In this document: one piece after another, positions 7,364-42,600 of the stretch
How the letters are laid out: each line of letters opens with the position of its first letter
How positions within the stretch are numbered: position 1 is the stretch's first letter
Sequence record: NC_047806.1
DNA from: Escherichia phage vB_EcoP_B
DNA: 44,018 bases
Direction: 5' to 3' (one strand)
Program-made: the position numbers and the translations under genes
The notes under the pieces: model-generated
What the model was told of the DNA's origin: nothing
Databases searched by the model: none
What the model saw: the letters and a program-made list of their open reading frames with translations, nothing else

Positions 7364-7384
7364 CTTCTATAGTGTCCAGTAAAT
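7364..7384 (-). promoter_or_regulatory. phage RNAP promoter
   Basis: ATTTACTGGACACTATAGAAG. Confidence 0.7.
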
Positions 7385-26711: not shown

Positions 26712-27056
26712 TTACCATCGTGCACATCCCTCTCTTACATCAATGTGGGTGAAATTAGGATAAGACCCAATGCCATATTTATTGGGGTAGCGTGCTGTTA
26801 GATAGGACCATACACGGTAAGGTGTAATACCTTGTACCTTAATGTCAGCAGCCTTACCAGTAAGATGCATGGAGTTCTTAGCACCTCCCACATTAGCATT
26901 GTGCTTAGCACAGCGGTGTCCAGAAGTAATAACTACAGGAGCACCAAAGTGCTCACGTACATCTGTGACTACCTGTAGTAACTCAGCATCTACTGTGGAT
27001 GTACCGCACCCACAACGGCAAGCGAACTCACGGCGCTTGAAGTGTTTGTTAAGCAT
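26712..27056 (-). CDS. endolysin, peptidase M15-type (115 aa)
   Basis: ORF track 26712..27125 trimmed to ATG 27054-27056 with GAGG SD; zinc-peptidase signature SMHLTGKAADI (SxHxxGxAxD) and downstream FTHID. Confidence 0.7.
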   Translation of the reverse strand: MLNKHFKRREFACRCGCGTSTVDAELLQVVTDVREHFGAPVVITSGHRCAKHNANVGGAKNSMHLTGKAADIKVQGITPYRVWSYLTARYPNKYGIGSYPNFTHIDVREGCARW

Positions 27057-27076: not shown

Positions 27077-27364
27077 TTAAGCCGCAGGTGTTACAGGGTC
27101 CGACTCCATAGTAGTTGCATCCCACTTGTCGGTGGGTTCACTCCCACGTGCAATAGCGATGTACAAGGATTGGTCTGTTTTCTCTACAGCAACCATGGCA
27201 CCTTTCTGTTTACCAGAGAGGTGTTTAATGTTGATAGGATGATCTTTCTTCTTAAGGTCTGCTTCAGCAACAATAGGCAAAGGGATTGCCGTTGCAGTGG
27301 TTTGTACAGTTTTTACTCGAAAAGCCTGACCAGTAACAGTACCTGCGGTTCCATATTTAGACAT
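27077..27364 (-). CDS. small protein, paralog B (95 aa)
   Basis: ORF track; strong SD AAGAGGAG; shares SGKQKGAMV...IAIA...TPA with neighbour. Confidence 0.5.
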   Translation of the reverse strand: MSKYGTAGTVTGQAFRVKTVQTTATAIPLPIVAEADLKKKDHPINIKHLSGKQKGAMVAVEKTDQSLYIAIARGSEPTDKWDATTMESDPVTPAA

Positions 27365-27376
27365 GTAACTCTCCTC

Positions 27377-27655
27377 TTAAGCTGGGGTAATAGTAGTGAC
27401 CGCTTTATTAGCTGTCAACCAATTGGAATCTTCTTTGCCATCAACTGCGATAGCAATAACCAGGTTATCATGTGTATCAAGACACACCATGGCCCCTTTC
27501 TGCTTACCTGATTTGGTGGCATCATTAATAACATCACCTTTCTTCTCAACAGTGTCCTCGTAAACTACAGGAAGCATCAGGGCTTCACTAACAGGTTGTA
27601 TCTGCTTACGAGCAGACTTACCTGTAAGGGGTTGTGTACTATAACTATTAGACAT
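27377..27655 (-). CDS. small protein, paralog A (about 92 aa)
   Basis: ORF track 27377..27715 trimmed to ATG 27653-27655 with AGGAGAG SD. Confidence 0.5.
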   Translation of the reverse strand: MSNSYSTQPLTGKSARKQIQPVSEALMLPVVYEDTVEKKGDVINDATKSGKQKGAMVCLDTHDNLVIAIAVDGKEDSNWLTANKAVTTITPA

Positions 27656-27788
27656 TCTCTCTCCTATTATGTAAGTATAGTAAGGAAGTAAGGAATAGGG
27701 TGTACAGGAGTACACCCATACTAAGGAATACCTATATAACCTAGGTTAACCTATATTATCCTTGTTATTCTCTTATTATCTGGGCCTT

Positions 27789-27810
27789 CCTTCTATAGTG
27801 TCCGGTAATT
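27789..27810 (-). promoter_or_regulatory. phage RNAP promoter (overlaps terminase stop)
   Basis: AATTACCGGACACTATAGAAGG. Confidence 0.65.
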
Positions 27811-29707
27811 AATAAGTCCTTGAAATCCTTGCAGAAAGTGTATTTCTGCTTGCCGATTTACTCCTGTAATTCTGACCGTATACTCTTTGCTGCATAGCCA
27901 CGGAAGTGTTGGTTACTCTTCGCTCAGTGCCATAATCTCCATAGAGCATTGCCCTACGGAGGTGAGGTGTGTTCATAGCATGGATGTAATCGCGCATCTC
28001 CTGCGCTCTGAGGCGATTAATCCGTGTAACCTCGTCATAGTCTATCTGAGAAGTTAATTGCCGTATAGCGCCATACAGAGCGTCTAAGCGGTCATCGTGT
28101 CGTAGGCTGTTCTTCTCAATCGTGATGTTCGACATTTGATTGAAAAGGCTGTATGACATGCGTAGTTCAAGCGGATAGTGCTGTACCGACTCAAAATCAG
28201 ACTTGACCATCTCTGCGTTGAAGATGAGCCTGTGGGCCGCCATTAGTGGCTCTAGTGTTTCAATGATACGCAACTCTTTCTGTCCGGTGGCGTAATCTTC
28301 CTCCAGAGTCACAGGCCACTCTCGTTCAAAGTATGGCTTTATAACGGCCTCAAACGCGCCATGACCAAAGTTCTTTTCAATGAATACCTCTTTAACACCT
28401 GCCTGCTTTGCGGCCTGCACAATGCGATTCAGGGACGATTCGCGGTATCCTCCCGGAACACCAAAGCACTGATACACATAAATGAATGTGCCGTGCAGGA
28501 AGACGATAGACACACCCGTTTCATCCCCGTTCTTACCGCCACCTGCGGGGTCAATATACATAATCTTTCGGGTAACAGCACCCCACTCATAAGGTCGGGC
28601 CACAGGGCGATACATAAAGTCTGTAGGCTTATTGCCATACTTCGGTGCATCGCCAATGATGTTAATAGAGTCGTTGCTCCATGTAGGCATCACAGGGACT
28701 TCCTCTGTACCGAATGAAGTGAAGATGAGGTTGTTCAGGCGTAGTGGATAGCGGTCAGCATCCATCATGCGAGTGTTAAGCATAAACTGAAGCTGGAACT
28801 TAGCCGCACCCTGCGAGATTTCCTTCTCGATCAGCACATCATCATCATACATTTCAGGTGCACAAGGTGCACCACTATTGCCATCCAAGCCATACCCTGA
28901 GCGAAGTGCTGGGTTGTCCTTCATATCCTGCACAATCATAGGTGCAAGGAAGTCACCATAGCATTGCTCCTGCTCCACTGAGGGATAACGTGCAGTCCAG
29001 ATACGAACAGAGTAACCACGAGCAGGTAGGTTATTGTAGATAGAGTTTACGTTCTGAGGAGTACCAAGGTAGATAATATCACCAAACTGGTTAATAGATT
29101 CAAACTCCTTGGTCAGTTCCTCAAGCAAGGCACGTCCTGCCGCTGTACGAGCATTCTGCATTGACTCAACGTCATCTGCTAGGATGATATCTGCACGCGC
29201 ACCCTGCATACCTGCTTCGATTGAGTAACAAGACACAGAAGGCGACTTGTCACTGCCACGTAGGGTGTAATGAATCTCAAATGCCTTAACTGAGGCACGG
29301 TCCCCTGCGTAGATGTCCGGTAGCATAAACTCAAGAAAGTCTAGGCCACGGAAGATTTTAACTACCCAACCTGCGATTTCCTCTGCTCGCTTGGCGTTTT
29401 GGGATACTACCATGATACGCTTATGGGGTTCATGGATGATACGGAAAACAGTATAGATTGCTGATAGTGTAGTTTTAGCGATACCACGGGGCGCTTCGAT
29501 GAGGCGATATTTATGTCCATAGAATAGAAACTTTAAAATATCGGCCTGCATACGAATCAGATGAGGGTTGCCTGCAATCAAGTTATGGATAACTGTATCT
29601 GCAAAGAGAAGCAAACCTTCCGCCGTATACTGAAAAGTCTGCTGTAACTCCTGTAGCATCTCCCATCTGGCAAGAGCCTCCGCTTGTGATTCTCTTGCCT
29701 TAGCCAT
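27809..29707 (-). CDS. terminase large subunit (gp19-like), about 632 aa
   Basis: ORF track 27809..29710 (TTG) trimmed to ATG with CTAAGGAGG SD; Walker A-like PRGIAKTT; size and position. Confidence 0.8.
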   Translation of the reverse strand: MAKARESQAEALARWEMLQELQQTFQYTAEGLLLFADTVIHNLIAGNPHLIRMQADILKFLFYGHKYRLIEAPRGIAKTTLSAIYTVFRIIHEPHKRIMVVSQNAKRAEEIAGWVVKIFRGLDFLEFMLPDIYAGDRASVKAFEIHYTLRGSDKSPSVSCYSIEAGMQGARADIILADDVESMQNARTAAGRALLEELTKEFESINQFGDIIYLGTPQNVNSIYNNLPARGYSVRIWTARYPSVEQEQCYGDFLAPMIVQDMKDNPALRSGYGLDGNSGAPCAPEMYDDDVLIEKEISQGAAKFQLQFMLNTRMMDADRYPLRLNNLIFTSFGTEEVPVMPTWSNDSINIIGDAPKYGNKPTDFMYRPVARPYEWGAVTRKIMYIDPAGGGKNGDETGVSIVFLHGTFIYVYQCFGVPGGYRESSLNRIVQAAKQAGVKEVFIEKNFGHGAFEAVIKPYFEREWPVTLEEDYATGQKELRIIETLEPLMAAHRLIFNAEMVKSDFESVQHYPLELRMSYSLFNQMSNITIEKNSLRHDDRLDALYGAIRQLTSQIDYDEVTRINRLRAQEMRDYIHAMNTPHLRRAMLYGDYGTERRVTNTSVAMQQRVYGQNYRSKSASRNTLSARISRTY

Positions 29708-30006
29708 CAATCCTCCTTAGTGAATTGGATGATCTTGCCACTTGATGCCTCTCGGATAGCCTTGAGGCGCTTAGATAGCTTGGACTCCTCCTGCTGTGCA
29801 GCGGGTGTAGCGGTAATACCATTATCAAGAACCCACTTACACATAGCTCCAATGTCTTTACCAGAGACTAAATGCAGTGCTGCATCTGGGTCTTCTTCTA
29901 TAGTGTCCAGTATTGCCTGTGCTTTCTTATTAAAGATTTTGGTAATAGCACCATGTAGAATGCCAACCTCGTCTTCCGTAGCTGCATGTTTATTGTGTAC
30001 GCTCAT
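29707..30006 (-). CDS. terminase small subunit (gp18-like), about 99 aa
   Basis: ORF track 29707..30051 trimmed to ATG 30004-30006 with GGAGGAGG SD; position between holin and large terminase. Confidence 0.55.
   Translation of the reverse strand: MSVHNKHAATEDEVGILHGAITKIFNKKAQAILDTIEEDPDAALHLVSGKDIGAMCKWVLDNGITATPAAQQEESKLSKRLKAIREASSGKIIQFTKED
29895..29915 (-). promoter_or_regulatory. phage RNAP promoter-like sequence inside small terminase gene
   Basis: CAATACTGGACACTATAGAAG (5' end diverged). Confidence 0.45.
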
Positions 30007-41394: not shown

Positions 41395-42600
41395 TTACTC
41401 AGCAGGTTTCATTGCAGTCGGCTTAATGTCATTAGCCATCACTGCACGAACAGCAGCAACCAAATCTTCAGCAGGCAAGCTAGCAGCGGCAGCAGCACCT
41501 GCCGGGGCAGCATTCTTGACGTATACAGCTTTACGCTGTGCACGGTTCAGAACCTGAGTGTGCTGTGCTCCACCAGTACCCTCAGCCTCCCCAGTAGATG
41601 TGCTACGCTTAGTTGTCACAACAGACACTGCTTCCCATCGATCAGGGATTGCACCTTCAGACATGAAAGTATCAATGTAGTAGGTCTTCTCTTTCTTCTC
41701 ATAGAAGATATCACCGGTTACATCAATAGAACGACCCACAAGCAGAGCGTCAGATGTGAACAGTACAGCGATAGCACCATTCATCTCTGCGGTCGGGTCA
41801 TAACGATAACCGTTGTCTTCATTGGACAGCAGGTGATGTTTCTGACCCTGAGAGAATTTAGGGAAGCGGTTAGACGGGATAACAGGACAGTTGTAAGAAG
41901 ACAGAACAAAACCATGAATGGTTGCACCGGACTGGCTGATGGTGTAGCTCTTGTCAACGATACGGTCTGCATCACGCAGTACGTTGAAGTAGCGCCACGG
42001 CATCAGGATAGCTACATCAGAGATGTCTACTTCCTGCTCAAGCTGCTGCTCCAGAGCAAACTCTACAGCCGCCATTACATACTGCGGGTTAACCAGTGCT
42101 TCGCTTTCATTGACCTCCACGTTGACAGAGAAGCCATGACCTTTCACACGAGGGTTAGTACGCTTAGCCTGAGTGTTAGCAATACCACCCAGCAGCATCT
42201 GCTGAATCAGCATTTCATCTTCCATCTTCTTAAGCTGCTTAGCTTGGTTGGTAGCCAGCTTAGGTTTCAGGCTGTCAATATCACCCTGTACATCATGCAG
42301 GTGTGCAACGGTGTTACGAGCAATAACAGTGGCATCAATTACCAGCTGGTTTTTATCGGCCTGAGTAGAGGTTGCAGCCGGAGACTGACCCGGTGCCAGA
42401 ACCTGCAACTCTGTTTCACCCAAGTATTTGTTGCTTACCGTGTTAGTACCAGTAACAGTCTGAACATCGAAGTAGGACATGATGTTCTCACCTTTCAGGT
42501 ACTGCTCATTTACCTTACCATTGAATTTCTCAATGAGCAGGCTGTCTACCTCACCGGAAGCGGAGACTGCAACGTTGGTCAGAGTGTTCGGTGTAGACAT
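41395..42600 (-). CDS. major capsid protein (401 aa)
   Basis: ORF track; strongest SD in window AAGGAGG; promoter 42651-42671 upstream; terminator immediately downstream; size typical of SP6-group capsid. Confidence 0.8.
   Translation of the reverse strand: MSTPNTLTNVAVSASGEVDSLLIEKFNGKVNEQYLKGENIMSYFDVQTVTGTNTVSNKYLGETELQVLAPGQSPAATSTQADKNQLVIDATVIARNTVAHLHDVQGDIDSLKPKLATNQAKQLKKMEDEMLIQQMLLGGIANTQAKRTNPRVKGHGFSVNVEVNESEALVNPQYVMAAVEFALEQQLEQEVDISDVAILMPWRYFNVLRDADRIVDKSYTISQSGATIHGFVLSSYNCPVIPSNRFPKFSQGQKHHLLSNEDNGYRYDPTAEMNGAIAVLFTSDALLVGRSIDVTGDIFYEKKEKTYYIDTFMSEGAIPDRWEAVSVVTTKRSTSTGEAEGTGGAQHTQVLNRAQRKAVYVKNAAPAGAAAAASLPAEDLVAAVRAVMANDIKPTAMKPAE

Follow-up and report, generated by a model that had tools for sequence, protein, structure and literature searches.

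What is the role of the two small genes that lie between the large terminase gene and the endolysin gene of K1E-like phages? We addressed this question in the genome of Escherichia phage vB_EcoP_B (NC_047806.1; 44,018 nt, all of which is referred to below as the window), a K1E-like Vectrevirus of the SP6 group of Autographiviridae in which every gene lies on the minus strand. The genes entered GenBank with the K1E genome, and their homologues were called minor capsid proteins in a preprint. A preliminary description of the window had reported two adjacent paralogous ORFs of about 92 and 95 aa at this place, and both were present and 37% identical over their full length. The first, the K1E gp41 orthologue (27377..27655, minus strand), starts with ATG and encodes a protein of 92 aa and 9.8 kDa; the second, the K1E gp42 orthologue (27077..27364, minus strand), also starts with ATG and encodes 95 aa and 10.1 kDa. 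The pair is flanked upstream by the large terminase gene (27809..29710, minus strand), an intact ORF of 633 aa, and downstream by the gene of an M15 peptidase endolysin outside the gp41/gp42 family (the K1E gp43 orthologue; 26712..27056, minus strand). The endolysin gene starts 20 nt after the gp42 stop codon, so a third family gene, as found in relatives at this place, would not fit here. Past the endolysin gene, the order is holin, spanin, gp46 and endosialidase tailspike. The gp41/gp42 region was 99.4% identical to that of vB_EcoP_C, D and R and 98.6% identical to that of K1E. In the K1E reference genome (L001 1448-4092), a homing-endonuclease gene (40.5) has inserted into the terminase gene and divides it into 40A and 40B; the terminase gene of the window is unsplit.

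The relationship between the two proteins was evaluated by pairwise and family alignments. BLASTP aligned gp41 and gp42 end to end, with 35 identities in 94 positions, 53% positives, an E value of 5e-14 and two gaps, each of a single residue. The SGKQKGAMV motif occupied residues 49-57 in one copy and 50-58 in the other, and the L.IAIA motif, the single Trp and the C-terminal TPA were aligned as well. The pairwise alignment thus agreed with the earlier proposal that the shared motifs stand at homologous positions, and a non-homologous placement was not observed. In an alignment of 20 diverse orthologues in which both genes are included, the invariant or near-invariant residues were T11, G12, R16, K18, P30, N45, S50, G51, K52, Q53, M57, V58, I69, A72, W81 and P93, and the motifs common to gp41 and gp42 coincided with these columns. 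The profile of PHROG 2725, the family that holds K1E gp41/gp42 and SP6 gp42/gp43, covered the full length of both gp41 (residues 1-92, E 5.2e-41) and gp42 (residues 1-95, E 4.7e-47). A six-frame HMM scan found exactly two family copies in the window (146 and 141 bits) and no third, diverged copy, the next segment having an E value of 0.36.

The synonymous sites of gp41 and gp42 were saturated (pS 0.62, dS about 1.3), and separate orthologues of each copy were found in SP6, PP1, Kp7 and CrRp3, which together indicated that the duplication is ancient. In the survey of copy number in relatives, gene 1 and gene 2 were present in 22 of 22 IMG/VR loci; a third copy was found in 10 of the 22, and a single copy in none. 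An in-place duplication that has since diverged, as first described, is therefore right in that the genes are true paralogues, but the event was not recent. The neighbour-joining domain tree, which is only approximate given such short and divergent sequences, grouped gp41 with gene 1 and gp42 with gene 2 of CrRp3, SP6, Kp7 and PP1, and placed third genes beside the third repeats of some fusions. Among orthologues, dN/dS was about 0.2-0.5 for both genes, and the variation was clustered in a few segments. These results demonstrated that gp41 and gp42 are real genes under purifying, fairly relaxed selection, as expected of surface proteins.

A side observation concerned a 95-aa protein (P0097; L019 1632-1919, L020 1023-1310) that was a clean chimera in two independent metagenome assemblies. 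It was gp41-like up to SGKQKGAMV and gp42-like beyond, being 71% and 62% identical to the window's two proteins, and looks as if the tandem paralogues had recombined at the conserved motif. An assembly artefact, or a second copy following the chimera, is possible because both contigs end about 44 nt past the gene and one has only 2x coverage.

Evidence on function came from homologues in Klebsiella phage Kp7. Analysis of purified Kp7 virions by SDS-PAGE and mass spectrometry yielded 'minor capsid proteins (gp32, gp45, gp46, and gp47)' (bioRxiv 10.1101/2024.05.19.594906), and the Kp7 genome record (GenBank ON148527) describes gp45 and gp46 as 'minor capsid protein' and gp47 as 'minor capsid protein with Ig-domain'. 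Our profile of gp41/gp42 orthologues matched gp45 (E 1.7e-23), gp46 (E 5.4e-21) and gp47 (E 3.6e-13), and tblastn gave 50% identity to gp46. The Kp7 homologues are thus virion proteins, and from this we infer capsid decoration in K1E-like phages. In addition, the C-terminal half of Kp7 gp47 matched the Ig domain of the T5 decoration protein pb10 (5lxk, E 2.8e-16; 8zvi, E 6e-17), Pfam Ig_3 and Ig_2, and other phage Ig decorations. The C-terminus of Aeromonas phage Tola gp63 matched PF11133, the phi29 head fibre, with 27.9 bits against a curated cutoff of 24.6 bits. In gp41 and gp42, Pfam found no Ig-like domain and no match to the head-fibre profile PF11133; the Ig domain was confined to the third paralogue of Kp7-like phages, and the above-cutoff head-fibre match to the Tola gp63 paralogue. 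The closest solved head, that of Kp7 (PDB 7Y3T; 7 chains, major capsid protein), matched the window capsid protein with an E value of 8e-179 and, as a point against a capsid position of gp41 and gp42, contained no chain of their family by sequence. The major capsid ORF of the window (41395-42600, minus strand) encodes 401 aa, of which the 7Y3T chain (363 aa) matched residues 1-362 only, so that the window protein has a C-terminal extension of about 40 residues beyond the match. For K1E, K1-5 and SP6, literature searches yielded no usable proteomics of virions and no usable capsid at high resolution, and the PP99 paper contained no proteomics.

To describe the family in relatives, we compared gene number and architecture at the same locus. 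Word-indexed searches returned 98 gp42-like and 87 gp41-like clusters, almost all of them from contigs of podophage size (about 44 kb). When 1.84 billion representatives were searched with the profile, 209 matched, and many of these were proteins of 260-300 aa from uncultured relatives with three consecutive domain copies, each repeat carrying GD.K.K, PVV, N....SGK..GA.V, A.G, W and TP. Two of these three-repeat genes were placed on contigs; both directly followed the gene of a T7-type large terminase, in genomes with a gene for a single-subunit RNA polymerase, and this is the slot of gp41/gp42. No fused three-repeat gene was found among the cultured phages of the INPHARED set, and a word-indexed search with the three-repeat alignment found 4 proteins only. 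The slot after the large terminase and before the endolysin was also occupied by the family in Kp7, SP6, PP1, CrRp3, Tola and the 22 IMG/VR loci. SP6 has gp42 and gp43 plus a truncated gp44, PP1 has three plain tandem copies, and Kp7 has gp45, gp46 and gp47 in tandem. Two plain copies and a third of about 230 aa were found in CrRp3 (third copy at L008 2787-3485), mutPK1A2 (L017 1796-2473) and pKP-M186-2.1 (L018 1799-2500), and Aeromonas phage Tola has two copies, one extended and the other plain. Two-gene, three-gene and fused three-repeat forms thus occur at one genome position, and the tandem paralogues set against the three-repeat protein make a clear case of gene fission or fusion.

The third paralogue (CrRp3, mutPK1A2, pKP-M186-2.1 and P0257) is about 225-235 aa long with the family domain at its N-terminus, and its C-terminal domain of about 140 aa had no Pfam or PDB sequence match. 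Long C-terminal domains were also carried by family members of 438 aa (P0259), 343 aa (P0298) and 337 aa (P0325). A protein of 794 aa with 7 matched stretches (P0328) was treated as a false positive, as it looks like an unrelated Ig-like repeat protein. In many Vectrevirus-like phages the third paralogue of about 230 aa was present or absent among close relatives; it is absent in the window. We also observed a fourth domain copy just downstream of the three-repeat gene of an uncultured 44.8-kb podophage (L003 8855-9453, L004 7776-8374), split over two frames at profile positions 13-47 and 48-83; a sequencing error, a frameshift site or decay into a pseudogene could account for the split.

Structure prediction was then compared with the sequence data. 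The AlphaFold2 model of gp42, computed from the 20-sequence alignment, had a modest pLDDT of 68.5 and predicted a small beta-rich core at residues 30-85; the 30-residue N-terminal arm was disordered in the model, yet it holds the invariant residues T11, G12, R16 and K18. The model of a three-repeat protein (P0186) reached a mean pLDDT of 86.6 and a pTM of 0.83, so the three domains were confidently placed as one compact body, and the pTM may point to a pseudo-threefold packing. Searched against BFVD, this model retrieved family members; weak matches fell on the N-termini of larger proteins with fibre or enzyme annotations. PDB sequence and profile searches with gp41 and gp42 gave no match at E <= 10, and no fold in common with a solved decoration protein was found. 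Pfam and NCBIfam showed no enzyme or DNA-binding domain in either protein. No membrane segment was detected, the maximal 19-residue Kyte-Doolittle hydropathy being 1.09 for gp41 and 0.83 for gp42, and the GRAVY values were -0.32 and -0.33, respectively. The gp41 of the window is acidic (pI 5.7) and its gp42 basic (pI 9.0); a charge-complementary gp41:gp42 heteromer was considered and dropped, as the median pI was near 7.8 with wide ranges in both families (84 and 96 orthologue clusters).

Collectively, these results suggested, with a probability that we put at roughly 60%, that gp41 and gp42 decorate the capsid as trimer-type proteins and are produced late from a phage promoter of their own, with the capsid as their probable position in K1E. 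Several observations argue for this reading: the homology and synteny with Kp7 gp45-47, the Ig and head-fibre fusions of family members, the recurrence of three in the three-gene arrays (SP6, PP1, CrRp3, mutPK1A2, pKP-M186-2.1 and Kp7) and in the three-repeat proteins, the P0186 model, the late promoter and Shine-Dalgarno sites described below, the retention of both genes in all IMG/VR loci, the relaxed purifying selection, and the lack of a membrane segment or of an enzyme or DNA-binding domain. Against the recurrence of three, the K1E lineage has two genes and not three. The trimer stoichiometry, the capsid rather than the tail as the site in K1E-like phages, the lattice site and a stabilising function are what we infer from this evidence.

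The capsid decoration reading can be put as a mechanism. The gp41 and gp42 proteins are anciently diverged paralogues of a putative virion module of about 90 residues in SP6-group Autographiviridae, transcribed late from a dedicated phage-polymerase promoter just past the terminase gene and translated from strong ribosome-binding sites. The module would assemble in threes into a compact trimer-like body, as a homotrimer of each paralogue or as a mixed trimer, and this body would decorate or cement the expanded T=7 head from the outside. By analogy with cement proteins, the conserved and flexible N-terminal 30 residues, with their TG...R.K motif, would hold the body in part, probably by binding the capsid or a neighbour. 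Where three copies are fused, a pseudo-threefold body would result; where the paralogues are separate genes, they would co-assemble or form homotrimers that divide the quasi-equivalent sites. The third paralogue of relatives carries an extension that would face outward, be it an Ig domain, a head-fibre segment or the domain of about 140 aa, which suggests that the module also anchors display domains. The K1E lineage has the two plain base subunits only, having lost the third or never had it. The trimeric head-fibre segment in Tola gp63 argues for homotrimers at least in that phage. A broader proposal, which we regard as tentative and on balance doubtful, is that the family is a new decoration module with a fold unlike the solved ones, in which a pseudo-threefold unit built from two or three paralogues, or from one three-repeat chain, serves as a platform for Ig, fibre or enzyme display on SP6-type heads, with K1E-like gp41 and gp42 forming mixed trimers or dividing the quasi-equivalent sites.

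Among the alternatives, the one that survives best keeps the proteins in the virion and moves them off the capsid shell. Here, gp41 and gp42 would be a small trimeric anchor or adaptor at the tail, the neck or the portal vertex, and in relatives fibre-like or enzymatic side proteins would be attached through their homologues. The weak BFVD matches (E 1e-3 to 3e-2) were to proteins annotated as a tail fibre (Marinomonas CPP1m), a pectate lyase (Bacillus Goe8) and an SGNH esterase (Pseudomonas BUCT553), which suggests that the module could anchor to another virion part. The region past the terminase gene in the SP6 group also encodes tailspikes, and P0259, P0298 and P0325 are family members with long C-terminal domains. 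However, the BFVD matches are weak and their names are unverified automatic annotations, the recognisable added domains are of head type (the pb10-like Ig domain and the phi29 head-fibre segment), and the Kp7 authors, who solved the Kp7 head and fibre structures, speak of capsid proteins. We therefore consider a tail or neck location unlikely.

The transcription unit of the pair was also analysed. An SP6-type phage RNA polymerase promoter (AATTACCGGACACTATAGAAG; 27790..27811, minus strand) begins at the terminase stop codon, and its core ACACTATAGAAG was an exact match at 27801-27790. The window holds 8 exact copies of this core, all on the minus (coding) strand, at 7364, 9279, 13013, 13706, 26117, 27790, 29895 and 42651; with up to 2 mismatches allowed, 18 matches were found in the whole window against 4.6 expected. 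Of the exact copies, one immediately precedes the capsid gene and another precedes gp46 and the tailspike gene. The promoter at 27790..27811 heads the unit gp41-gp42-endolysin-holin-spanin and, as an exact copy right behind the terminase stop codon, makes gp41 and gp42 the first genes of a late unit running into the lysis genes. The strong Shine-Dalgarno site that had been ascribed to each gene was read from the sequence as AGGAGAG for gp41 (27659..27665, minus strand) and as GAGGAG for gp42 (27371..27376, minus strand), the latter directly 3' of the gp41 stop codon. Two hairpins were seen in the leader of about 140 nt that separates the late promoter from gp41: a perfect one of 8 bp (GGGUGUAC-UCCU-GUACACCC; 27698..27717, minus strand), which was present in both the MFE and the centroid folds, and an imperfect one (27731-27753, minus strand). 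As a whole, the stability of the leader relative to shuffled sequences was not significant (z -1.75). These hairpins could serve for RNA processing of the RNase III type or for RNA stabilisation, as is the case in T7 late transcripts.

The promoter at 27801 serves gp41, gp42, endolysin, holin and spanin together, and this co-transcription, along with a position directly behind the packaging genes, would also suit late proteins that are not kept in the particle, namely regulators of lysis timing or helpers of assembly or packaging. The preliminary description had suggested lysis regulation or late accessory functions on the grounds of position alone. Against a non-structural role, neither protein showed a membrane segment, a lipoprotein signal or any similarity to holins, antiholins or spanins, and the pair is kept where the lysis cassette differs, as in Tola with its transglycosylase and in SP6 with its extra genes. 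Moreover, homologues are found in purified Kp7 virions, and Ig and head-fibre fusions would be senseless for an intracellular regulator. These results made a non-structural role improbable and spoke against lysis regulation in particular, while the broader suggestion of a late accessory function was loosely right, in the sense of late, dispensable-looking structural accessories.

RefSeq and PHROG 2725 name gp41 and gp42 "acetyl-CoA acetyltransferase", that is, a thiolase. We discard this reading with near certainty at the level of sequence and size, as the database label is all that favours it and all that these proteins have in common with thiolases, whereas size (92-95 aa, about a quarter of the roughly 390 aa of thiolases), domains (no thiolase domain) and fold (predicted to be small and beta-rich, with no enzyme match) all differ. 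Pfam and NCBIfam showed no match to thiolase domains in gp41 or gp42 even at E values up to 1, and their scans returned nothing but GroES (E 0.048) and CdaS (E 0.17), both far below the cutoffs; the absence of a Pfam match in proteins of fewer than 100 aa marks the name as spurious. It has spread, in many RefSeq and GenBank records, to phages of Escherichia, Klebsiella, Salmonella, Proteus, Vibrio, Pectobacterium and Aeromonas, apparently through PHROG 2725. The earliest label that we found was a 'putative' entry in the genome table of UAB_Phi78, given without evidence (PMC4837284).

The present analysis corrects this misannotation, connects the forms with two genes, three genes or a fused three-repeat gene at a single locus, and describes the modular extensions of a family with no solved fold relative. 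The wrong name is borne by more than 100 phage genomes, including RefSeq entries of the therapy-relevant K1E, K1-5 and SP6 groups, and gives the impression that therapeutic phages carry a metabolic gene. If gp41 and gp42 are head-decoration proteins, a conserved but variable gene block past the terminase would be explained, and an unsolved fold would join the known decoration proteins. The module would also be a natural display scaffold, on which relatives already hang Ig and fibre domains. In phages of the K1 capsule, surface decorations could affect particle stability and interactions with mucus or the host surface.

Finally, we compared the pair with known systems. Kp7 gp45-47 are the closest, sharing with the window the family, the slot between terminase and endolysin, first two genes encoding about 90 aa and membership in Molineuxvirinae; in contrast to the window, the third gene of Kp7 carries an Ig domain, and virion presence is shown for Kp7 only. 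Trimeric cement proteins of the Lambda gpD type, which occupy quasi-threefold sites, offer functional analogies in their size of about 10 kDa, flexible N-terminal arm and late expression and, putatively, in a trimeric state. Lambda gpD has no sequence or fold similarity to gp41 and gp42, for which the trimeric state and the site are predicted, and it is encoded by one gene, whereas the gp41/gp42 family comprises two or three diverged paralogues or a three-repeat fusion. The anchor-plus-display design of T5 pb10 and T4 Hoc resembles that of Kp7 gp47 and P0266, with an Ig domain that matches that of pb10, and differs from the window, where gp41 and gp42 lack an Ig domain; the anchor domain of pb10 is not known to be related to the gp41/gp42 domain. 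As for the phi29 head fibre gp8.5, in Tola gp63 the family domain is followed by a segment that matches the C-terminal portion of PF11133, which suggests a trimeric fibre on the head of that phage; gp41 and gp42 have no fibre segment, and the base domain of gp8.5 was not matched. In PhiM1, another member of Autographiviridae, two paralogous decoration proteins, one plain and one extended, are separately encoded, have a capsid-binding motif in common and divide the quasi-equivalent sites between them. They were rejected as relatives of gp41 and gp42 because they belong to a different, helical family, with a helix-turn-helix dimer fold at twofold axes and no sequence relation, whereas gp41 and gp42 are predicted to be of a beta-rich trimer type. 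As an analogy, PhiM1 may nevertheless serve as a model for why two paralogues are kept.
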